Shown here: piece by piece, positions 3,170 through 21,700 of the stretch
How the letters are laid out: each line of letters starts with the position of its first letter
Numbering within the stretch: the first letter of the stretch is position 1
Source: a virus
DNA length: 64,000 bases
Direction: 5' to 3' (one strand)
Virus record (IMG/VR): IMGVR_UViG_3300029892_000002
Notes under the pieces: generated by a model
The model's database searches: none
What the model saw: only the letters and a program-made list of their open reading frames with translations
What the model was told of the DNA's origin: nothing
Made by a program: the position numbers and the translations under genes

Positions 3170-4471
3170 TTATGGGTTGACGAGTATAGCGCGTTCTATC
3201 GGCATACCTCTTGATATGCGTTTCTTTAATCGTTTTAATGGAACGTTATTAATTCCAGCTAATTCCTCAGCTGTCCAAATTTTACCGTCGTATTCGTAAG
3301 TTCCACGTAATTTAGTATCCAACGGAACACCTGTTCTCACACGTTCATATATAGTTTTACGTTTGAGACCGGTTTCTTTTTCAGCGACATCGATGGTTAC
3401 CATCCTACCATCAGGCATCGGAATGAATGCTTCTTTAGGACGTTCTACTTCCGTTTTATGAATCCATTTATAATTACCAGGACCTAATGGTAATTTTGGA
3501 TCAATATGTTTTAGGACATGATTTTCTGATGGTCTCGGACTTAAATCTGCTTTAAACGCTGGGTATGAATACAGCCATTTATTACACATTCTTAAGCCCT
3601 TAGCACCATTGTATCGGTATTCTTCATGATTCTTATTATAAAACTTGGCTTTTAGATTAGACCAAAGCCTATATGTGTAACTTTCATTATCACCGTGTTT
3701 TAGATAAAGGTTATTAGAGACCTCTTCTATTTCTCCTGTCTCTGGATTGGTTACTTGCATATAGAACTTCTTAATATGCCTGATAGCCTCCTCGACAGTT
3801 AGACCTCCTCTTAAATGGTAACGAAGGTTATAAGGAGCTATATGTTCTCTACCACATATATCAGCTACAGTTAACATCTCTCCTTTATAACTATATTTAG
3901 GAATTTCGTGATATGGTTTATCGACAGCTTCCTCTACCGTCATACCGTTGGATATACGTGACTTAATGAGTTTCTTATCTATACCAGATATAGCGGACAA
4001 TTCATCCAGAGTCTTCATCTCACCCTTATACATCCTAAACGCTCTATGTGGGACTACTGGATGTTCTATATCTTTACCTCTAGAAAGTCTAGTATATAGC
4101 GTGTTCTGGTTCATGTTTAAATGTTCTGAGGCCTGTTTTGAGTTTAGAACACTACCAGTACTAGGTATGGTAACATCTATAGTTGTAGAGCGATTGTAAT
4201 CCTGCTCTTCTTTAGTAGCCCATCTGCAATTACCAGGCTCGTAGTTACCATTGTTATCTATGCGGTCTATACTGTATTCAGGTCCTGGTTTTGGACCCAT
4301 GTCTTCAAAGAACTTCATGAATGAATTACGCCATTCTGGACATACAGTAATACCACGACCACCGTATCGCTCATAACTACCGTGCGATGGTAATTCGCAT
4401 CTCCTTACCATAGCTGACCATGTCTTATATTCAGGTGTATCTGTCATGCCGTGTTTTTCAAAAGGTTTCAT
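3170..4471 (-). CDS. Free-standing HNH-family homing-endonuclease-like protein with duplicated nuclease domain and HTH-like repeats
   Basis: N-terminal HGMTDTPEYKTWSAM..RC..YGGRGITVC.EW..F..F..DMG..SIDRIDNNGNYEPGNCRWAT. A degenerate second copy starts at HGDNESYTYRLW. Repeated T(L/I).E......I..RI..G...E.A units. Confidence 0.8.
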   Translation of the reverse strand: MKPFEKHGMTDTPEYKTWSAMVRRCELPSHGSYERYGGRGITVCPEWRNSFMKFFEDMGPKPGPEYSIDRIDNNGNYEPGNCRWATKEEQDYNRSTTIDVTIPSTGSVLNSKQASEHLNMNQNTLYTRLSRGKDIEHPVVPHRAFRMYKGEMKTLDELSAISGIDKKLIKSRISNGMTVEEAVDKPYHEIPKYSYKGEMLTVADICGREHIAPYNLRYHLRGGLTVEEAIRHIKKFYMQVTNPETGEIEEVSNNLYLKHGDNESYTYRLWSNLKAKFYNKNHEEYRYNGAKGLRMCNKWLYSYPAFKADLSPRPSENHVLKHIDPKLPLGPGNYKWIHKTEVERPKEAFIPMPDGRMVTIDVAEKETGLKRKTIYERVRTGVPLDTKLRGTYEYDGKIWTAEELAGINNVPLKRLKKRISRGMPIERAILVNP

Positions 4472-7714: not shown

Positions 7715-8473
7715 TTACCATTTAGCGAACTTAGGTGCTTGCACTGGTCGCATGGCTATATTAACCAAACGCAAGGATTCATTGACAAGATCCTTGGATT
7801 CGATAGCCAGTGGCATTTCATTATCGTTGGCTAGCTTCTCAAGCTGCTTGATAGTAATGGGAGAGTCTGAGAGGGTTTCCATGGCAGGACTATCCCATTT
7901 ATTGGAAATAGCTATACCAGGCTCAGTTACACAATCCCATGTAACTATCTGAACTATGGTACGGTAATTAGTACCACGAATCATGCGATCCTTAGTAAGT
8001 GCTCGGATACTGAAACAAACATTTTCTTTAGGGTTGTCTAAGGAGTCTTTCAGGGATTGAGCTTTAGGACCAGATGGTTTGAGTTTGGCGATGATAGCTA
8101 CCAGATGTGGATTGCGCAACTGTGGGTTCTTCTTCCCATAATTAGGATCAAGAAATACATCAGCATAGTGCACACAGACGTTCGTTTCTTCGATGCTCAT
8201 GATACGGCGCATATAGGTTTTCATACCCATACCAGGAGCTTGTTTGGGATGACCTAACTCACCTTTAAGACAGCCGTTCTTGATACGGCGAATGAATAAG
8301 GAAGATTGCTCGAAGAGTTGAGTAACACCATCCGCTACATAGTACTCATCAGCACTATTCAATGTATTCAGTCCACCGATAACATGTTCATAATAGCCAT
8401 GCTCATCGGGAGTAAGGATGCCTTTTTTACCAGTATTGGAAAGTTTGGCTTCAGTGAACTTAATGATAGACAT
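7715..8473 (-). CDS. Prohead (head maturation) serine protease (phiKZ gp175-like)
   Basis: GGLNTLNS..EYY, LKGELGHP (His), FSIRALT (Ser), TWDCVTEPGI. ATG at 8473 after GGGG RBS. Confidence 0.85.
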   Translation of the reverse strand: MSIIKFTEAKLSNTGKKGILTPDEHGYYEHVIGGLNTLNSADEYYVADGVTQLFEQSSLFIRRIKNGCLKGELGHPKQAPGMGMKTYMRRIMSIEETNVCVHYADVFLDPNYGKKNPQLRNPHLVAIIAKLKPSGPKAQSLKDSLDNPKENVCFSIRALTKDRMIRGTNYRTIVQIVTWDCVTEPGIAISNKWDSPAMETLSDSPITIKQLEKLANDNEMPLAIESKDLVNESLRLVNIAMRPVQAPKFAKW

Positions 8474-8569
8474 ATCGATGTCCCCTGTATTAGAAATATT
8501 AGTCACAGGATGACTGGAGATTTGTTAAAAAATAACACCATGGCTTGGAACCATGGTGTTATTGATGTA

Positions 8570-8671
8570 TTACATTGTTGTGGCTATTTCCCTGTCTTTG
8601 AGAATTTGATCCATGGTATCGCTAATACCATTACCATCCTTAAAGATAAGTTTGAAATCAGTCATCTTCAT
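8570..8671 (-). CDS. 33-aa microprotein MKMTDFKLIFKDGNGISDTMDQILKDREIATTM
   Basis: Below the ORF-track cutoff. AAGGAG RBS, repeated promoter upstream, and its own T-tailed terminator (8531-8563) downstream. Confidence 0.55.
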   Translation of the reverse strand: MKMTDFKLIFKDGNGISDTMDQILKDREIATTM

Positions 8672-8718
8672 CTCCTTCGTAGCCTAACCTCTTATACCAC
8701 CATGGTAAAAGACTAGTT

Positions 8719-8760
8719 GGCTATCTCATGTACTATATATCTGACCATAGCAAAATCAGG
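8719..8760 (-). promoter_or_regulatory. Putative phage early promoter (copy 3)
   Basis: Plus strand GGCTATCTCATGTACTATATATCTGACCATAGCAAAATCAGG. Confidence 0.65.
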
Positions 8761-8861
8761 TATGAAAAACTATCCATGGATGTACTCGTGGATAGTCTTG
8801 GTATTTAACCAAAGCAGAAAGACCAGCCCTTATATGTCACGCACGATGATAGGGGTCCAAA

Positions 8862-9105
8862 ACTGTCTTTTTCTCCTGTCCTTGACATCCTCCTCGACCT
8901 AATGGATGAGGATTCCTTAACCTTGCGGTCAGGTGATCCACTCCAGGTAGCCCGAGCAGGCTTCCCACTTCATAGACATGCTTACCCGATACTGACTGGG
9001 CAGAGGCGAGAGGTCTCCATGGGCTGATACCGTGTGTCACCACGGCGGTGATCTTGCTGTTAGAGCCAGCGCGATCGTGCTCGCTGTGCTCGGTTGATGG
9101 GAGAG
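8862..9105 (-). ncRNA. TnpB omegaRNA/reRNA 1 (scaffold ending TCAA plus about 20-nt guide GGACAGGAGAAAAAGACAGT)
   Basis: ACCGCCGTGGTGACACACGG..GCCCATGGAGA..TCTATGAAGTGGGAAGCC..GAGGATGTCAA downstream of tnpB. The 5' boundary is approximate. Confidence 0.7.
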
Positions 9106-10394
9106 CTAGGATACCCTAGCCAGTAAGATGCGACCAGCCACATCTCCAGGAGCATAGTGGGATACTACCCTCTCTGCCTCCTGGAGGATGTTGATGGCTG
9201 CGTTGAGATCCCTGTCATGGGTCTGGCCACAGTGTGGACATAGCCATGACCTCTCTGACAGCTTAAGCTTCCTATCTAGCCTGAGCCCAGTAACACTGCA
9301 CAGATGGCTGCTTGGGTACCAGACATCCATGTAGACCAGTGTGCAGTGCTGGGACTCGATGGCCTTATAGTTCAGCTTCTGGGTGATGCCAGACCAGGCA
9401 GCATCCATGACGTGTTTGGCCAGTTTGCTGTTACGTGCCATGTTCCCTACACGCAGCTCCTCTAGCCCGATCACTTGGTTATCGTTGACGAGGCGGCGAG
9501 ATATCTGGTGTTGGAAGTCATGGCGGCAGTTAGCTATACGGGAGTGCTGGGCTGCTAGGAGCTGACGAGATTTGATGGAGTTACGGGAGCCTTGCTGCTT
9601 ACGGGAGTGGGATTGTTGTAAGCGGCGTAGCTTACGCTGTGCCGTGACATAGTGGCGGGGGTTGGTGATAGTAGTGCCATCGCTGATAGTGGCTAGGGTT
9701 TTGATACCTAGGTCTATACCTATCCTACCAGTGCCAGAGGTCCTCTTGGGCGTGTACTCACAGGTGTAGGATACGTAGTAACGACCTGTGGAGGTCTTGG
9801 TGATAGTGAGGCTGGATGGGTCTGGTGGGAGCTCTCTGGAGTAGACCACCTTCAGAGGCTCTGGTGATTTGGCGATGAAGAGTTGGCCATCACGGATGTC
9901 GAAGGCTGTTTTCATCAGGCTGAAGGATTGTTGGGAGGTCTTCTTCTTGAAGCTCGGGTAGCCCTTGCGGGTATGGAAGAAGCGTTTGAAGGCTTCTCCC
10001 AGATGGAGCATGGACTGCTGTAGGGCCACGGCTGATACTTCAGAGAGCCAGGTGCTGGCGGGATCGGTTTTGTACCTGGGGAGTCTGGCTACGAAGCCAT
10101 ATCCTGACACATCAGGCCTGATAGGCTCTGGAGTACATGGAGCTTGCTTCATAGCCAGATAGTGGTTATATTCGGCTTTGGCCTCAGCTAGGGCTCGGTT
10201 ATAGACATAGCGACAGCAGCCGAAGGTTCGCTCTAGGAGCTCCTTTTGAGCTGGAGTTGGATAGATGGGGAACTTGAACCCCTTCTTAAGGGGCTTGGTA
10301 GGTGTGGTCATACTAAGCTCCTGTGATAGGGGATGGTGGGATATGGAGTCGCTTATATCCCCAGCCTTAAGTCTGGGGTCTTACGCTCCAAGAG
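8882..10394 (-). mobile_element. IS200/IS605-family element carrying tnpB only (no tnpA)
   Basis: Left-end hairpin GGAGCG-TAAGA-CCCCAG-ACTTAAGG-CTGGGG-ATATAAG-CGACTCC. Right end GGAATCCTC...GAGGAGGATGTCAA. Visibly more GC-rich than the flanks. The left boundary after TTAT is inferred from reading-frame restoration. Confidence 0.85.
9106..10311 (-). CDS. tnpB: RNA-guided endonuclease TnpB
   Basis: HTH (FPIYPTPAQKELLERTFGCCRYVYN). RuvC triad intact: GIDLGIK (D), GLEEL (E), HDRDLNAAINI (D). Zn ribbon CSVTG/CPHCG. Confidence 0.95.
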   Translation of the reverse strand: MTTPTKPLKKGFKFPIYPTPAQKELLERTFGCCRYVYNRALAEAKAEYNHYLAMKQAPCTPEPIRPDVSGYGFVARLPRYKTDPASTWLSEVSAVALQQSMLHLGEAFKRFFHTRKGYPSFKKKTSQQSFSLMKTAFDIRDGQLFIAKSPEPLKVVYSRELPPDPSSLTITKTSTGRYYVSYTCEYTPKRTSGTGRIGIDLGIKTLATISDGTTITNPRHYVTAQRKLRRLQQSHSRKQQGSRNSIKSRQLLAAQHSRIANCRHDFQHQISRRLVNDNQVIGLEELRVGNMARNSKLAKHVMDAAWSGITQKLNYKAIESQHCTLVYMDVWYPSSHLCSVTGLRLDRKLKLSERSWLCPHCGQTHDRDLNAAINILQEAERVVSHYAPGDVAGRILLARVS

Positions 10395-10635
10395 ATAATT
10401 TCAATCCATACATAGGTCCTAACTCTTTGATCTTGTACCAGAGTATCGGATACGAACCTTTGTTGTTTATGAAATTACCACACAGCCATGAGTCCAATGT
10501 ATCTGCTAAAGGGTGGTCTCTATTACTAAACCAAAGCTTTCCTTCATATTCTTTGAAATATTCAGGATTAGTTACCAACAATCTATCGATATCGTTTAAT
10601 ATCTTCAGCAATTCTTCCAGTTTTTCTTGAACCAT
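10381..10635 (-). CDS. Small accessory protein truncated by the tnpB element
   Basis: AGGAG RBS and repeated promoter upstream. The last codons (..CTT GGA GCG TAA) lie inside the IS left end. Confidence 0.7.
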   Translation of the reverse strand: MVQEKLEELLKILNDIDRLLVTNPEYFKEYEGKLWFSNRDHPLADTLDSWLCGNFINNKGSYPILWYKIKELGPMYGLKLSLGA

Positions 10636-10671
10636 TTCCGTCTCCTATTTTAAAGAAAATGATCACACATC

Positions 10672-10697
10672 ACCAAGTATTAAATATATGACCATAC
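10672..10697 (-). promoter_or_regulatory. Putative phage early promoter (copy 4, degenerate)
   Basis: Minus strand GGTATGGTCATATATTTAATACTTGG upstream of 10635. Confidence 0.5.
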
Positions 10698-10743
10698 CTA
10701 ACCACAATAACGGGTTAGGTATGGTCATGATGATGTCCTCTTA

Positions 10744-11454
10744 TCAAGCTCTAAGTAATGTTTCTACATGAGAGGCTTTTTCAGATGGTTGCACTAAGGC
10801 ACTTACAACAGCATCTTGGAAGTATGAACCAGCTAGTTTATTGACAGTTCCTGGAGCAGCATAGAACACGTTACCAACCATACCTATGTAAGCCGGTGTG
10901 TTCTTTTCAACTTCTTGCCTGGTCTTAACGAAATGTCGATACTGGATAGCTCTGTCCTTAGGTGAGCGGCTGATATAAGCGACTAATGCTTCCATGACGC
11001 TATAGTTTTTAGCTACCTCACTATCAGCAAACTCTTTAGCACCATCAAAGATTCTACCTAAGTCCTCATAATCAACATACCAAGGAACATTACCTTTAAG
11101 GAAGAACTCTTCCATGATGTTGAAAATAAGGATAGCCTTACGAACTAGGTTAGTGTTTTCAATGACAGTGCTTCCAGCTTGATAATGGAAGTTGTAGTAT
11201 TCTACACCATCGATCGTGGTTTCAGAAATACGAGATGGGTTAGTTCTGACCATAGATGGCACGCACGATACAGCATATTCATCACCTATGATCAGCGCAT
11301 AGACACCAAATACATATGTCTCATTACCGATTTCAGCCATACCGCGATCCAAGAATCGCTTAGGAAATTGAATGATGCAATCTTTCCTAGTGACAAGAAG
11401 CTGTTCTTTGGTTTCGTGTAGTTGCGATATTACAGCAGATGCATTTCGTTTCAT
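10744..11454 (-). CDS. Conserved phiKZ-like hypothetical protein
   Basis: 236 aa with AAGGA RBS; G.VPWY..YEDL..IF and QYRH motifs recalled from phiKZ-family proteins near the protease. Confidence 0.7.
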   Translation of the reverse strand: MKRNASAVISQLHETKEQLLVTRKDCIIQFPKRFLDRGMAEIGNETYVFGVYALIIGDEYAVSCVPSMVRTNPSRISETTIDGVEYYNFHYQAGSTVIENTNLVRKAILIFNIMEEFFLKGNVPWYVDYEDLGRIFDGAKEFADSEVAKNYSVMEALVAYISRSPKDRAIQYRHFVKTRQEVEKNTPAYIGMVGNVFYAAPGTVNKLAGSYFQDAVVSALVQPSEKASHVETLLRA

Positions 11455-11492
11455 TATTTAGTCCTTTTCAGACAACCACACGATGTTGCTAT

Positions 11493-11738
11493 CTACCAGT
11501 TCTGCTCTTCAACTTCCCTAGCTGCTTCTGGGTTTTGCAATCTACGTAGGTATCTAGTTTCTTCCATCCAACCGCTACTGTCTTTTTCGTATTCTAACCA
11601 TTCTTCTAATTGTTCTGATTTAGCCAGATAGTGATTGTACTTGCCATATAAGGCAACAATAACCAGAAGTAAGACAAATATGATAGCGTACAGTTCGTTG
11701 GGATTAGTTGTCATTTTTAATATCCAATCAGGCATCAA
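11493..11738 (-). CDS. Small membrane-anchored hypothetical protein
   Basis: One hydrophobic segment YAIIFVLLLVIVALY, then a charged C-terminus. Confidence 0.6.
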   Translation of the reverse strand: MMPDWILKMTTNPNELYAIIFVLLLVIVALYGKYNHYLAKSEQLEEWLEYEKDSSGWMEETRYLRRLQNPEAAREVEEQNW

Positions 11739-14702: not shown

Positions 14703-15890
14703 CTACGCCATGTAGTCGCGCGTAAGGATGATCATAGCCCGAGGATCCAAGATATGACTCATCGCTAGTGTACGTTCGGCTAGCTGACGTAGGTTTTGAG
14801 AGGCGTTGTCGTCCCTCTCATGACGTGTACCACAGTGCTCGCAAGTCCACTCTCTGACAGACAGACCTAGTTTCTTTGACGGTCTACTACCACACACATG
14901 ACACTCTTGCGTGCTAGGATAGTAACGGTCTGCTATGATGAGTCGACAGTGTTGCGAGGCTATACATTTATACTCCAGCATCCTTCTGAACATACCCCAT
15001 CCTGCTGTCATGATGTGTTTGGATAGATGGCGGTTACGAACCATATTACCTACAGCAAGGTCCTCTATGCAGATCGCTTGGTTCTCGCGAACGAGTGCGG
15101 TTGAGAGCTTGTGAAGGTGGTCCTTCCTCTGGTTAGCTATATGTTGATGACACTTAGCTACCTTTAGACGGGCTTTGTTACGGTTGTTGGAGCCTTTTTG
15201 TTTACGACTTAACCTACGTTGTAACATACCTAACCTTCGTTGAGAGGCTAGGTAGTGGCGTGGGTTAGGTATCGTGATACCATTAGACATAGTGGCCAGG
15301 TCTGTGATACCTAGATCTATACCTATTATACCAGTACCTGTGGTTTTAACTGGCTCGTATTCACATAGGAAGCTAGCGTAAAACTCTCCAGTAGGAGTCA
15401 TGGTGATCGTGACCTGAGATGGAGCCGATGGTAGATCACGAGACCATAGGACTTTGATAGGTAGAGGGCATTTACGGATATGAAGCATGTCGTTACGGAT
15501 ACTGAAATCCTGCTTATCTAATCTGAATGAGCCTCCATCGGTTTTCTTCTTGAACTTCGGATAACCTGTCTTTTTCTTACGCCCTCGACTAAAAAAGTTC
15601 TGGAAAGCTCTGCCTAAGTCCTGAATTTTTTGATTACATGCAGCCGCTGGGACTTCTTGCAACCATGTCATATCAGAATCGTTTCGAAGATACTTAATTC
15701 TAAGACATAAGGCATATGGAGATAGGTTTGGTTTTGGTATAGATGCATTGGCTATGTGGTCTTGATATTCTCGCCTTACCCGAGCCAGGATCTCATTGTA
15801 GATCCATCTTGTACCACCAATATACTTGCGTAAATAAATTACAGCTTCTAAAGATGGCCTAAGTCGTTCTCGATAGGCTTTTTTATGCAC
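14703..15890 (-). CDS. tnpB: RNA-guided endonuclease TnpB (second copy, no transposon ends seen)
   Basis: RuvC triad intact: GIDLGITD (D), CIEDL (E), HERDDNAS (D). CHVCG/CEHCG Zn ribbon. GTG start 8 nt after the upstream stop codon. Confidence 0.95.
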   Translation of the reverse strand: MHKKAYRERLRPSLEAVIYLRKYIGGTRWIYNEILARVRREYQDHIANASIPKPNLSPYALCLRIKYLRNDSDMTWLQEVPAAACNQKIQDLGRAFQNFFSRGRKKKTGYPKFKKKTDGGSFRLDKQDFSIRNDMLHIRKCPLPIKVLWSRDLPSAPSQVTITMTPTGEFYASFLCEYEPVKTTGTGIIGIDLGITDLATMSNGITIPNPRHYLASQRRLGMLQRRLSRKQKGSNNRNKARLKVAKCHQHIANQRKDHLHKLSTALVRENQAICIEDLAVGNMVRNRHLSKHIMTAGWGMFRRMLEYKCIASQHCRLIIADRYYPSTQECHVCGSRPSKKLGLSVREWTCEHCGTRHERDDNASQNLRQLAERTLAMSHILDPRAMIILTRDYMA

Positions 15891-16184: not shown

Positions 16185-17303
16185 TTAACTACGATATAAC
16201 TGTATGGCTTTCTTGGCCACTTGGTCTAATAGCACAGAACAAGTACCAATAGCTAATGGTGAAAGTGTAATACGTTTACCGATGGACATATAACTAAAGA
16301 TCGCATCGATGGTTTCGCCTCTTTCCGTCTTCATGTCATATGACATGACTTCAGACACAACCGATTTAAGCTGGTTAGCAAACACCACCTTATCGCCGAG
16401 TTGTGCTTTGTCGTTGATGATGATGTAGACTTTTATGACGGCTGTGTCAACATGTAAAGGTTTACCTTCAACACGGAATTCTTCATTCACACGTCCGTCT
16501 TTAATGACATGATCTGTGTTCTTCGTACGTTCTAACATCTGCTTGTTTGAATAACTAGCTAGTTTACGTAACGAAGGTGTCATGTCTTCTAGATCACCAT
16601 TGTAATAAACTTCATATCTATCTATCTTACCATTAACCTTAGCCTTAGGAGCTAGATTAGATAGCCTAGACAGAGCTTCAATGGTATCTGAGTCGAATAC
16701 ATCTAAGCCACTAGTGATAGCGTCTTCGATGATAAAGATTATGTCATTAGGCTTAACTTCTGTACCAGGATTAGTGACGTTCCTGATGCTCTGATTGAAG
16801 TTTATTATGAATGACTTTTCCTTAACAACTCTAGTACTAAGTCTCTGAGATAGATTTGGTGTTATGCTATCAGAATCCTCAAGGGTCTGAGTAGTGTCCA
16901 TGATAGCTACTTTGGCTTTCAATGAGGTCTTCATGATGATCTGTTTAGGATTCATGAAATCAGGTTCAAAGAAGCCTGTGTTATAAGCGATCGGATCATT
17001 CTTCTTAAAAGACTGACCTTGTTTAAGAGGTGTAGCTATTTCATGAGGATACAGAGATCCTTCTGAACGACCGTATTGTGTACCGATCTGAATACCTACA
17101 CGTTCTTTGTTCTTATACTCTATTGTGATTACTTTATCAGTCAGTTCTATGACTTTACCGTCATCCTGAGCCATATATGCATAGAGTTTACCAACCCTAA
17201 AAGGCATGACTGATTCATAACCAGTTCTGATTTGAGGTTGGTGATATCCCTCACATGCAACAGTATGACTATTCTGGATTGACACAAAATTCACTCTTTT
17301 TGG
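16185..17303 (-). CDS. rpoB: Virion RNA polymerase beta subunit N-part (phiKZ gp178-like), exon 2
   Basis: PKRVNFVSIQNSH...IRTGYE...GDKVVFANQLKSV (beta GDK motif). Joins in frame to exon 1. Confidence 0.9.
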   Translation of the reverse strand, partial: PKRVNFVSIQNSHTVACEGYHQPQIRTGYESVMPFRVGKLYAYMAQDDGKVIELTDKVITIEYKNKERVGIQIGTQYGRSEGSLYPHEIATPLKQGQSFKKNDPIAYNTGFFEPDFMNPKQIIMKTSLKAKVAIMDTTQTLEDSDSITPNLSQRLSTRVVKEKSFIINFNQSIRNVTNPGTEVKPNDIIFIIEDAITSGLDVFDSDTIEALSRLSNLAPKAKVNGKIDRYEVYYNGDLEDMTPSLRKLASYSNKQMLERTKNTDHVIKDGRVNEEFRVEGKPLHVDTAVIKVYIIINDKAQLGDKVVFANQLKSVVSEVMSYDMKTERGETIDAIFSYMSIGKRITLSPLAIGTCSVLLDQVAKKAIQLYRS

Positions 17304-18708
17304 CTTTATGTCCAGCTAGGTCGCTACTCTAGCCCGGTGTGCTAAGACACCCGCATAGGCTTTCACCCATGAACAGACTATATCTTCATCCATGAAGGAC
17401 GGCTCCCATTTCGGCCTCGCTTGAGACCTACAGGTTGATAACTCCTTAGTCGTTGAACGTTACGCATATCTCGTCATCTCGACGATACTTAGCGTCTTCG
17501 CTGCTGATTACCCATATATCCATACACTTATTAAGCCGTGGCTTCACCTTTCGGTTAGCAGTGGCAGTATGGCTTTAGGACGTCCCAGCAATTAGAGAGC
17601 ATTTCATCTAGATATTACTACCTAGAGAGACCATTAAACTTATTAGAATGGATAATAACCATAACGACAACCATCCCTAAAAACTTTTTTACCATTAGAC
17701 GATAATCGATAGTTTAGAGCAGTTGGACTTAACCCGTGAGATCTTGAACATTCTATTGCTGATGTATAGATCTTTCTCTCACCAGTATTCTCATTAACCA
17801 CCTGTACAACTCTATATAATCCAGATGAAGCGAGTTCCTTGTATGGATCTTTAACTTCTCTCCATTGTACTGGATCTAATGCCCATTGTAGTTGTATAAG
17901 AGGAAAAAACACCGGTTGATTTGGTTCATTAATCCACGTGCTAAGAGTTGCAATAGATAGACCGAGATGTTCAGCAGTTTCTTTGAGCGTAGGTATGAAA
18001 AAAACATCGTTTGTTTTTAAATTCTTGAGAAGAACTGGTTTATTTAAACCATTTTTCATTAGTTCTTTCTCAATATCAATAGGAACAGGCCATGGTTTAT
18101 TAGACCTAAAACGATATTGTTTTCTATCTGGAAATACTCTACTTTCACCCTGATGTACTCTGTAATTTACAGCATCTTTAGAGATACCGTAAACCTTAGC
18201 ACATTCTGCTATACTCGGAAATTCCTCTACAACCCCACTATCAACATTTCTAACAGATATAGGAAGACATTTATTCGTTAAACCAAGATTACCAGCATGA
18301 TGGATATTTCCAGTATGGGTGGTCCATTCCAAATTATCCAATTCATCATTTCCTTTTATTCCGTCTATGTGATTGACTACAAGCTTATTTAGATCAGAAC
18401 CAGGATGCTTGAATACAATGCAGAGTAACCTATGTCTTCCTTGAAGAGTTTTTTTACCACTGTCACTAAACATAGAGTAATGGTAATAACCAGATTCGCC
18501 ATTTTCTGTTTTTATGAGTGGTTTTAACTCTCCTGAACCATCCTTTTTAATTACAGAACCTTCTTTTGAAATTCCATACATAGAGAACCCAGGAATTTCA
18601 AAATAACCTGGATGGTTTTTAATTTCTTTGGGATGATAATTATCCATACGACCCTTTCTTTTTGAATCTATATAATAAAAGGTCGTCAATATAAAATAAG
18701 TTTATTTA
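17304..18708 (-). mobile_element. Group I intron (1405 nt) carrying an HNH gene
   Basis: Core P AATTGCTGGGA, Q AATCAGCAGC, R GTTCAACGACTAAG, S AAGATATAGTCTG. The 5' exon ends in U (GAT GAT) and the intron ends in G (..CATAAAG|CCA). Confidence 0.92.
17643..18689 (-). CDS. Intron-encoded NUMOD4/HNH homing endonuclease
   Basis: EIPGFSMYGISKEG (NUMOD4-like); HRLLCIVF..VNHIDGIKGNDELDNLEWTT..GNIHHA (HNH); three F.S..ECA..G.S...NYR-like DNA-binding repeats. The start may be ATG 18647. Confidence 0.9.
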   Translation of the reverse strand: MTTFYYIDSKRKGRMDNYHPKEIKNHPGYFEIPGFSMYGISKEGSVIKKDGSGELKPLIKTENGESGYYHYSMFSDSGKKTLQGRHRLLCIVFKHPGSDLNKLVVNHIDGIKGNDELDNLEWTTHTGNIHHAGNLGLTNKCLPISVRNVDSGVVEEFPSIAECAKVYGISKDAVNYRVHQGESRVFPDRKQYRFRSNKPWPVPIDIEKELMKNGLNKPVLLKNLKTNDVFFIPTLKETAEHLGLSIATLSTWINEPNQPVFFPLIQLQWALDPVQWREVKDPYKELASSGLYRVVQVVNENTGERKIYTSAIECSRSHGLSPTALNYRLSSNGKKVFRDGCRYGYYPF

Positions 18709-21700
18709 ATCATCATTAAGAGAGAATGGAGCCAATAAAGCTGATGTCGATAACAGTGAAGTAGCACCATCTTTATCTCTATTAAACCCATCTTCCTGTA
18801 TGATACCACGTACTGATTTGAACTTAGGATTACCTGACATGAAAGCATTGATACCAACATCACCACTATCTACGGTAGCTTCGGATATCACACCCATGTC
18901 TGATGGATGATATTCACGGCTTTCTTTTGACATGGCGTCTTTTGAACGACCATCGGCACCGACATACGTAACAGCTTCAGTTTCCTTAGCATCATTGATA
19001 GGATTGATGTCTTCAGAAAGCTTAACTGTTTGGTCTTGAGTGATAGCACGCCATACTGCATATGGATTGATGGATACTTGTGATTTACCACGGATGTTGC
19101 GTGCTTTGTATTCACGCACTCCATTGATAAGTTCTCTGTACATTAACCCAGCTACACGTTCATAGCCTCTGATGCGCATATAGCGCATGTCATTAGTATC
19201 TGGATGATAGTCAGTCAATAGAAGTTCATTGGATCGCATCAACAAGCCTTGGAATGTTACAGGTTCATTCATCTCACGTAAGATGGATTCAGTGATTGGA
19301 TCAATAAACAATTCGTTAAGGGTTTCCAGTTCTTTAAGATACCTAGCTGACAACCCACGCTGTTCCAGAAGAAGTAGATAAACATCCTTCTTATCAAAGA
19401 TAGCCAGATCGTAGTTCTTGATGGTATCTTTGTAGAAGTTATACCCAGATAGTAATAAAGCAGATTTACTATCGCGTTTATCTAGAATCAGGTATTTGTC
19501 CTTGAATGTTAGCTTGTATTCATAGGGCTGAAGTTGACGACGGCTACCTCTATCAACAACTTGAACTTTAGCTCCTAGTAATTTAACCAACTTACTAAAC
19601 CCAATGTAATATCCCATAACAACTCCAAGCGGGATGGATTTAGCAAATACTTTCAACTCACTAAAGGAGACAGGGGAAGACTCCTCTGCTATACCAGTGA
19701 GGTTGTAGATATTACCAATAGGAGTAAGTGTTCCATTCCTAAGAACATGAAACACATTCATGTCATCTACAACGATCGGTTCGTTTTGTTTGCTCTTACC
19801 ACAGAGTATCTTGCCATCTTTCTCAAGAGTAGTTATATCCATCTCTGGAAACATGGAGATACGTTCTTTGTGATCGAACATCAACGTGCAATCTTTAAGA
19901 ACAAGCTGTTTGAATCTCATAGACATACTGCTATAGATCCGTGGAGCAATGAATTTGTTATCAAAGATACGTGCTGGAGTTATTTTCTTAATCGTATCAT
20001 TACCACCAGCTAAACCAATTTGCATGATCTGGTTAGACAACCAATCCATGTCATCAAACTGTTTACGTTCGCATCTATTAACAAACACCTTACCATAGTA
20101 ACTAGATAGAGCTACAGAGATAGGAGATATCTTCCGTATAGGCTGGTCAAAACGCTGATTTCTCATACGTAAACGAACATTACCAGCCATGAACTCACCT
20201 TCATCATTCACTTTGGGTATTCTGAAATGAAGAGTGGATTCAACTCCATCGATAGGACGAATCTTAACTGTATGGTGTTCATACTGACCCATAGCTGAAG
20301 ACTCTTCCTCGATCTGGTAATCACGTACTATGATGCCAGCGTTAGAAAGATGAGCTATATTGGCCTGAACATCCTTAGGAAGAACATCTTTGACATATTT
20401 TCTGCTAAACTCTTTGAGGCTACTATTCAACATGGACTTGTCCATTACAGTCGACATGTCTTGTATTTTGGTAGCCTCTGGATCTATAATGATATCTTCC
20501 TCAGATACCTTGACATATTCAGATATAGTCTTACTAGGATCTTTAGGAGACTTAAGTGTCTTAGACTGTTCTATCTGCTTAACAAGCGTTCGATAGTTCT
20601 GTGCAGTTATCACACCTTGTTCAGCTTGTTTGTTTATCTCACTGAGCAGTTTCTCGGTAGGATCTACTTTACCGAATACCTGTGATTGTAATTGAGAAAC
20701 CTCCTCTGGAGTAGCTATGAAAGTTTCATCTGTAACATCTTCATTATTGCTTTCATCCTCAGGAGCAGATGAGACCTTCTCAAGAATCTCTAATTCCTCA
20801 TCTACACTCTTGATCAGATCATCGATGTTTATAGCACTACTAACTGGAGCTGCATCTTTCTCCAGTTGTTTTTCTATTTCTTTTGAGGTCCTGACCTTAG
20901 TTAACTGCTTACTAGGATCTATAGCCTCATCCTGAGTTTGAGATGGTGATTCAGTATCATTATTTACCTGTACATGTTCTGATGTATCGTCTTTATCATC
21001 ATAGTCAGCTAGGTCATCCTCCTGTTCTGAATCACTACTTCCATTGGTAGTTTCATCAGTAGTTGGTTCAGGCATGATAGCAGACGTTTGAAGACTCAAC
21101 AACATCTTCAGAACAAATCGCTGGAGTTGGATCGGTTTAAGCTGAGGGATGTTTACAGGAGTGGATTTATCACTGATGCCGGCATTCCAATCCTCGATCC
21201 GTTGCAGATTAACAACAGTAAACCTATCCTTAAACCTAAGAACGATATTGATGTATTTGAGCTCTTCTGGTTTCAATACAGATAGAGTTGAGAACTCCCT
21301 AGTCTCTGGATCTAACCATCTCCAGAGATCCAGAACAAACAATAGTTCTGGATTGATGAATGTTCTCAATACACGCAAAGATACTTGACTAGCGAACATC
21401 TTCAACATACCAACCGACGGTAGTTGGTCAGGAAGGTCCTTGATAATAAACTGCTGTCTATGAGTAGAGGATGCTACTTTACCCATGTTTGACCAAACAG
21501 TCTTTTCAAGGTTTAACCAGTCGTAATATTCATTCATCGGCATATTTACATACCGATAGACTTCATGCAATAGACCGTAGTTATATGTAATCAACGACAG
21601 TGCATCTATCGCTACTTTATCTGGTTCATCAGCCCATCTGAACTTACGGTTGTTCTTCAGTTGCCAATCCCTGAATAACATCTTAACTGGTTTACTAAGA

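Follow-up and report, generated by a model that had tools for sequence, protein, structure and literature searches.

A tnpB-only IS608-like element splits a gene of a phiKZ-like jumbo phage and may act as an RNA-guided homing element

A 64-kb stretch of DNA from an uncultured phiKZ-like jumbo phage (IMG/VR record IMGVR_UViG_3300029892_000002; here called the window) carries an IS608-like tnpB-only element of 1,513 bp (8882-10394, minus strand) inside a small phage gene, with the insertion locus spanning 8805-10635 on the minus strand. The element is a non-autonomous member of the IS200/IS605 family with IS608-type ends, carrying tnpB and an omega-RNA without a transposase. Its anatomy, that is, its boundaries and its position within a phage gene, can be stated with high confidence. 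The explanation of the whole locus as a tnpB-only insertion in a phage gene that acts as an RNA-guided homing element is favoured with modest confidence.

The interrupted gene can be read on both sides of the element. A minus-strand open reading frame (ORF) that begins at 10635 reads ...GLKL, continues through four foreign codons and stops at 10381; this 84-aa ORF (10381-10635) holds the 5' part of the gene (10395-10635) and ends inside the left end of the element. The 3' part, comprising the last 25 codons and the stop, lies at 8805-8881 on the same strand. The sequence-only reading held that rejoining the two would restore a 318-nt frame, and joining 10395 to 8881 on the minus strand yields exactly that: the frame encodes 105 aa, finishes in ...GLKLWTGEKDSFGPLSSCVTYKGWSFCFG and has its stop at 8805-8807. 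As a query, the 84-aa ORF retrieves one cluster, whose representative, P0001, is a 105-aa protein with 89% identity, the predicted C-terminus and the same join. The interrupted frame is not a product of chance, because this independent public protein shares both its C-terminus and its join.

P0001 is encoded on L001 (JGI 3300044603), a contig collinear with the window at 85-99.5% identity that reads ...GATTGAAATTAT up to the join and GGACTGGAGAAAAAGACAG after it. A second empty allele, P0124, occurs in L181 (JGI 3300029893) and in L182 and L183, from two SRA runs. The 105-aa gene is uninterrupted in both of these sister contig types, and the join falls exactly where the sequence-only reading had placed it for sibling phages and not elsewhere. 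A second record from JGI 3300029893, L002, carries the element and matches the window at 99.96% identity over 5 kb. Because L002 is occupied and L181 is empty in that one sample, occupied and empty strains co-occur, and the locus is a presence/absence polymorphism at one homologous site, with L001, L182 and L183 empty elsewhere.

Comparison of the alleles also speaks to the gene itself. Between the window and the empty alleles, 24-25 codons differ synonymously and 9 nonsynonymously, so the interrupted gene is real and under constraint. A full-length homologue, 47% identical, is present on L173, a 203-kb contig from a more distant phage. Its best conserved stretch is the tail LWTGE.DSFGPL, so the insertion removes the most conserved part of the protein.

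Occupied and empty alleles (L001, L181) differ by exactly 1,513 bp after TTAT, without target duplication. The element starts directly 3' of TTAT (10398-10395) and ends ...GTCAA at 8882, and these boundaries cannot be shifted because flank and element bases are unlike each other at both sides. The block opens with a hairpin-containing leader of 83 nt, continues with a 401-aa ORF and closes with 224 non-coding nt that finish in ...GGATGTCAA at 8882; all of it is inserted in sense orientation relative to the interrupted gene. Exact boundaries, together with tnpB as the only gene between them, bear out the earlier claim of a complete tnpB-only element. The element has a GC content of 54%, and the remainder of the window one of 41%.

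Each end carries a subterminal hairpin. The 83-nt left end (10312-10394, minus strand; DNA fold z = -2.76) comprises a linker (10394-10383), the guide tetranucleotide AAGA (10382-10379) and the hairpin CCCCAG/CTGGGG (10378-10359), which places the target tetranucleotide 16 nt 5' of the hairpin. This hairpin and its flanking GAGCG and TAAGCGA motifs are kept in relatives, and a Shine-Dalgarno-like AGGAG within the left end precedes the tnpB ATG. At the right end, GAAT (8915-8912) lies directly 5' of the right hairpin (8911-8892), which is followed by exactly 10 nt ending in TCAA (8885-8882).

This arrangement closely parallels IS608 of Helicobacter pylori. There, the left cleavage site, TTAC, lies about 19 nt 5' of its hairpin and the right one, TCAA, 10 nt 3' of its own, and a 4-nt guide on the 5' side of each hairpin foot recognises the site (PMC3201880). 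The jumbo-phage element is likewise inserted 3' of a tetranucleotide (TTAT here, TTAC in IS608) without duplication, finishes in TCAA at the same 10-nt distance from a subterminal hairpin, and has a 4-nt guide 5' of each hairpin foot, of which the left one covaries with the flank. It differs from IS608 in lacking tnpA, in its TTAT target, in residing in a jumbo phage and in a TnpB zinc finger that reads HxC...CxxC across the clade. The right-end guide of IS608 itself is likewise GAAT.

Relatives with readable DNA (L003-L006, L167, L168, L169-L172, L176, L180 and L087-L089) extend the comparison to eight independent insertions of the clade, six at TTAT and the others at TTAC or CTAC. The left flank is TTAT in the window, L003/L005, L004 (a different flank), L167, L169 and L180, TTAC in L168 and CTAC in L176. 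Beside a TTAT flank, the last base of the tetranucleotide 5' of the left hairpin is A (AAGA or AAAA); beside a flank with a final C (L168, L176), it is G (AAGG, AAAG). All eight insertions follow this rule. Such covariation of guide and flank is the signature of the TnpA mechanism, and it fixes TTAT (10395-10398, minus strand) as the target of the element. Right ends finish in TCAA in all readable relatives, and the sequence diverges directly after. The stretch corresponding to 8881-8862 is different in each copy, and each time it is identical to the local flank. In L168 (4359-4600), a second, TnpB-less copy of the tnpB 3' end and scaffold directly follows the right end of the element; it is what remains of an earlier element, and two right ends now lie in tandem.

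No tnpA was found when a single TnpA, from L062, was run by tblastn against the window and nine related loci, a weak test that agrees with the earlier claim that the window holds none. An adjacent TnpA-like ORF appears in only one of about 160 fetched relatives. Since no tnpA was found, the element is classed as a non-autonomous, tnpB-only IS608-like derivative.

The tnpB gene (9106-10311, minus strand) encodes a 401-aa protein that matches the Pfam families HTH_OrfB_IS605, OrfB_IS605 and Cas12f1-like TNB, and residues 10-379 match the ISDra2 TnpB structures 8H1J and 8BF8 at E ~1e-57. The RuvC triad, D200, E284 and D368, is invariant in 22 homologues. The ratio of nonsynonymous to synonymous substitution rates (dN/dS) of tnpB is 0.19-0.24 against the sister copies in L180 and L003; the comparison with L167 is left out because of a one-codon offset. 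The zinc finger reads HxC...CxxC clade-wide and is therefore not a lesion of the window's copy. In the clade alignment, every member has a first zinc knuckle of SSHLC..T in place of CxxC, and H336, C338, C358 and C361 are conserved, possibly forming an H-C-C-C zinc site.

A conserved omega-RNA scaffold overlaps the right end (8882-9052, minus strand). An RNAalifold consensus from seven relatives contains 31 pairs, 15 of them with compensatory changes. The minimum free energy of the single scaffold is no better than that of shuffles (z = -0.99), and the support for the structure is covariation. Between the window and L180, the scaffold is 92% identical, against 82% for the whole element (mostly tnpB), and the synonymous sites of tnpB differ by 36%. 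The low dN/dS, the compensatory pairs and the scaffold identity together show that TnpB and its scaffold are both under selection; their activity is only predicted. No Rfam family of any RNA matches the scaffold, and an omega-RNA core pattern finds nothing in the genome contig collection and only the known L087 contig in IMG/VR, a weak negative given how strict the pattern is.

In its layout, the system resembles the ISDra2 TnpB-omega-RNA complex (PDB 8H1J, 8BF8, 8EXA), which has the same domain order and RuvC D-E-D triad, a scaffold that likewise overlaps the right end and a guide taken from the flank. The transposon-associated motif (TAM) of ISDra2 is TTGAT, as against the TTAT predicted here. 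TTAT had earlier been called a described TnpB TAM, and it is so published for ISDge10 TnpB, from a bacterial element of Deinococcus, for which a working 4-nt TTAT TAM is shown experimentally (PMC13507860). Single guide mismatches affect ISDge10 TnpB (PMC13507860), a sensitivity that matters below.

The predicted guide segment (8862-8881, minus strand) directly follows the right end and doubles as coding sequence for the conserved WTGEKDSF. TTAT plus GGACAGGAGAAAAAGACAGT, the uninterrupted allele, is the predicted target. A guide search of the window returns its own site as the sole match, preceded by TCAA instead of TTAT, so the carrier copy should be spared.

The window comes from a phiKZ-like jumbo phage. 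Its genes include an S80 prohead protease, a tail sheath and split RNA polymerase beta subunits that share 31-35% identity with their counterparts in Burkholderia, Xanthomonas and Klebsiella jumbo phages. It also contains two recombination genes, for a UvsX-like recombinase and an SbcC-like protein.

The relatives of the element point to the same kind of host. TnpB relatives at 60-86% identity come from metagenomic records only, and the clade at 55% identity or more is confined to metagenomic, mostly phage-like contigs. Two scans covering one genome per species for 185,579 species gave no TnpB relative above 47% identity among the matches listed, and locus searches of viral and genome collections with TnpB as the only query protein gave no near relative. 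The TnpB with 86% identity (P0003) was reached through its cluster mate P0122. Where their context is readable, relatives in the 60-86% range also split genes in sense orientation on phage-like contigs. Precise removal restores long frames in L169 (53 + 490 aa) and L180 (80 + 171 aa), an SLT-type gene in L176, and frames in L003 and L167; jumbo-phage markers are present on the L168 and L176 contigs. These observations suggest that one TnpB clade circulates chiefly among phiKZ-like phages, whose genes it splits again and again.

A sister element on L180 (3879-5371), from the same sample, occupies a different TTAT site and is 82% identical in DNA and 86% in TnpB. It splits a 252-aa frame into a 96-aa ORF and a NUDIX gene. 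The L180 contig shares the window's promoter-like cassette and probably belongs to the same phage lineage. On L263, a 236-kb JGI contig, a stretch of 11 kb holds three TnpB genes of the same clade, with 58-60% identity to that of the window, and at least two of these copies have no obvious left end. L263 was not counted as phage evidence; it has no protein similarity to the window.

How the element came to its site and what it does there can be sketched in steps. It is established for the family that TnpA excises and inserts at a tetranucleotide and that the TnpB-omega-RNA complex cuts TAM plus flank, that is, the empty site. A Y1 TnpA acting in trans, whether from the host, from a co-resident element or from phage sequence beyond the window, would have placed the element on single-stranded DNA. 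The phage gene's own promoter would then transcribe through tnpB, the scaffold and the flanking 16-20 nt. Because the element and the gene are co-oriented, such read-through transcription from the interrupted gene into tnpB and the scaffold is plausible. With GGACAGGAGAAAAAGA... as its guide, the resulting TnpB-omega-RNA complex should cut the uninterrupted allele, TTAT plus guide, and would leave its own genome untouched, since TCAA replaces the TAM there. In a mixed infection, the phage recombination system (UvsX-like, SbcC-like) could repair the break from the occupied genome and copy the element in. Repair would amount to homing without TnpA, and an unrepaired break would mean the loss of the competitor genome. 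RNA-guided homing in co-infection is plausible because the phage encodes UvsX-like and SbcC-like proteins; the homing step taken by itself is finely balanced, a little short of being favoured.

A promoter-like cassette, ATGGTCA.ATAT.TA.TAC.TG (10672-10699, minus strand), lies upstream of the interrupted gene and aligns with five other copies, each upstream of a small minus-strand gene; its role as a promoter is putative. After the gene stop comes a candidate terminator, an 11-pair stem that is followed by a T run on the minus strand. The terminator hairpin of the sequence-only reading is thus present at its expected place, although the scan puts it at 8769-8796 rather than 8766-8797. L001 has a different hairpin and T run at the same place after the gene stop.

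The logic of this proposal has precedent in plasmids. Experiments show that TnpB, independently of TnpA, drives an IS605 element from one plasmid copy to others (Mears et al., PMC11870625), and in this gene drive the ribonucleoprotein similarly cuts element-free copies of the same replicon (PMC11870625, PMC13565253). The advantage in plasmids is RuvC-dependent and TnpA-independent (PMC11870625). The plasmid drive is shown in E. coli, whereas the phage locus is a natural polymorphism known here from its sequence. A review covers "transposon non-restorative homing", with homing into co-infecting phages as a theoretical proposal only (PMC13565253). A literature search found no paper showing TnpB homing between co-infecting phages.

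Several observations weigh against a homing role. Contrary to the expectation that sampled sibling alleles would read TTAT plus guide exactly, the L001 empty allele differs from the guide at position 5 (T for A; 1 of 24 nt), and L181-L183 have CTAT in place of TTAT and depart from the guide at positions 5 and 17 (3 of 24 nt). Given the single-mismatch sensitivity of ISDge10, the known siblings may not be cleavable. The insertion at CTAC in L176 indicates that a first-position C may be accepted in the target, at least by TnpA. Only one occupied haplotype is present in the data, so co-conversion tracts cannot be sought. An element of 54% GC in a genome of 41% GC fits a recent arrival that may simply not yet have been purged. 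Many phiKZ-like phages build a protein nucleus, and if this phage does so, TnpB would need to be imported to reach the phage DNA.

Escape selection at the target was considered as an account of the mismatches and rejected. Siblings mismatched to the guide would fit a drive that had already converted all susceptible alleles, but at 1 and 3 of 24 nt the mismatches are no denser than the overall divergence of the gene (11.6-12.6%). Mismatch density equals the gene average and gives no evidence of such selection, which again counts against homing.

Identity to L001 drops toward the insertion site (99.5%, 94.8%, 92.4%, 88.3% and 84.8% within window 8805-11497), and identity to L181 is 98% in the protease gene compared with 83-90% in the target gene. 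This drop could be that of a fast-evolving accessory gene or a recombination footprint. Nearby, 227 bp with an 81-aa ORF (11498-11724) are absent from L001, and 244 bp with a promoter-like cassette (8562-8804) are absent from L181. Megablast of 8000-11500 against cultured phages and tblastn of the 84-aa ORF against phages gave no match, a search for the empty-site pattern in IMG/VR found none, and a metagenome scan with the adjoining 236-aa protein gave only distant relatives (42-64%) and no further close siblings.

The alternative that best survives is that of a passive passenger, in which a single TnpA-mediated insertion in a dispensable gene has been inherited vertically, TnpB is useless in the phage and the polymorphism records strain history. 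It would account for the single occupied haplotype, for an element GC far from that of the phage and for empty alleles that mismatch the guide at the density of ordinary divergence, and insertion sequences are common in phages. A useless TnpB is harder to reconcile with the purifying constraint on TnpB and scaffold between copies on phage-like contigs, and with a clade that, at 55% identity or more, is found only on metagenomic, mostly phage-like contigs and has no relative above 47% among the matches listed in the species-wide scans. Moreover, the most conserved part of the host protein is removed, yet the strain persists in more than one record. The passenger explanation is considered unlikely, though it deserves more weight than those that follow.

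A purely restorative role is improbable. Here, a cognate TnpA encoded elsewhere, in the host or in phage sequence beyond the window, would excise the element, TnpB would cut the donor joint and a sister copy would restore the element, with interphage spread not being the selected function. Both ends keep all that an IS608-type TnpA needs, the covariation between guide and cleavage site attests to TnpA selection on the clade, and related copies at several TTAT sites require transposition. Restoration is moreover the published role of TnpB (10.1101/2023.03.14.532601). Against it stand the failure of the single-TnpA tblastn to find tnpA in the 64-kb window or the nine related loci and the near absence of adjacent TnpA-like ORFs among the fetched relatives. 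Restoration is also compatible with homing, as the two roles do not exclude each other.

Still less probable is a nuclease that serves as an interference weapon, destroying co-infecting genomes with the empty allele while causing little gene conversion, so that the carrier phage rather than the element alone benefits. Its targeting logic is that of homing, and homing endonucleases kill competitors when flanks are too divergent for conversion (review PMC13565253). The flanks here are 83-90% identical to those of empty strains. The recombination proteins of the phage, however, make repair from the carrier genome likely.

A domesticated, nuclease-independent TnpB acting as a TldR-like RNA-guided regulator of the phage is disfavoured and very improbable: phage-encoded TnpB-derived regulators exist, but the TnpB here is full length with an intact RuvC triad, the complete transposon ends are kept and the guide matches nothing in the window but its own insertion flank.

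IStrons, which combine a group I intron with an IS605-type tnpB, also place a tnpB element inside a coding gene in sense orientation. An IStron was rejected here: the left end is only 83 nt long, and an Rfam search at E up to 0.1 detects no group I intron between 8000 and 11000, although it does detect RF00028 at 17354-17646. With no intron at the element, the interrupted gene is truncated rather than spliced.

The RF00028 match (E = 1.4e-21) belongs to a separate 1.4-kb insertion (17303-18709), absent from L001, that consists of the group I intron and a 348-aa HNH-type ORF (17643-18689). It splits an RNA polymerase beta-like gene, which encodes 1,402 aa in L001 and is divided into 1,079 + 369 aa in the window. 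A second TnpB (14703-15890) of 395 aa, 45% identical to the first, is accompanied by a short omega-like scaffold, but neither a left end nor a right-end hairpin can be recognised. L001 also carries this TnpB at the corresponding position, so it is older or fixed. At 3170-4471, a 433-aa protein with two HNH-endonuclease matches (PHROGs) adjoins the tail sheath gene and adds one more free-standing nuclease to this 15-kb stretch.

Cas12 descends from TnpB, whose natural role is still under study. Its known roles are the restoration of excised transposons and the driving of IS605 through plasmid copies, while spread between phages is only a proposal. The value of the present locus lies in the natural polymorphism and the apparently phage-borne clade, the type of element being already known. 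It offers exact ends, a predicted TAM, a 20-nt guide and natural empty alleles whose mismatches, one of them in the TAM, are defined, together with a sister element at another site and the phage's own recombination genes. More speculatively, and with doubt prevailing, a TnpB lineage essentially of jumbo phages might spread as a TnpA-independent RNA-guided drive, with surviving empty alleles made resistant by synonymous changes in TAM or seed and, if the phage is nucleus-forming, with TnpB also an import cargo. The locus is thus a natural case for asking whether TnpB elements spread like homing endonucleases between co-infecting phages.

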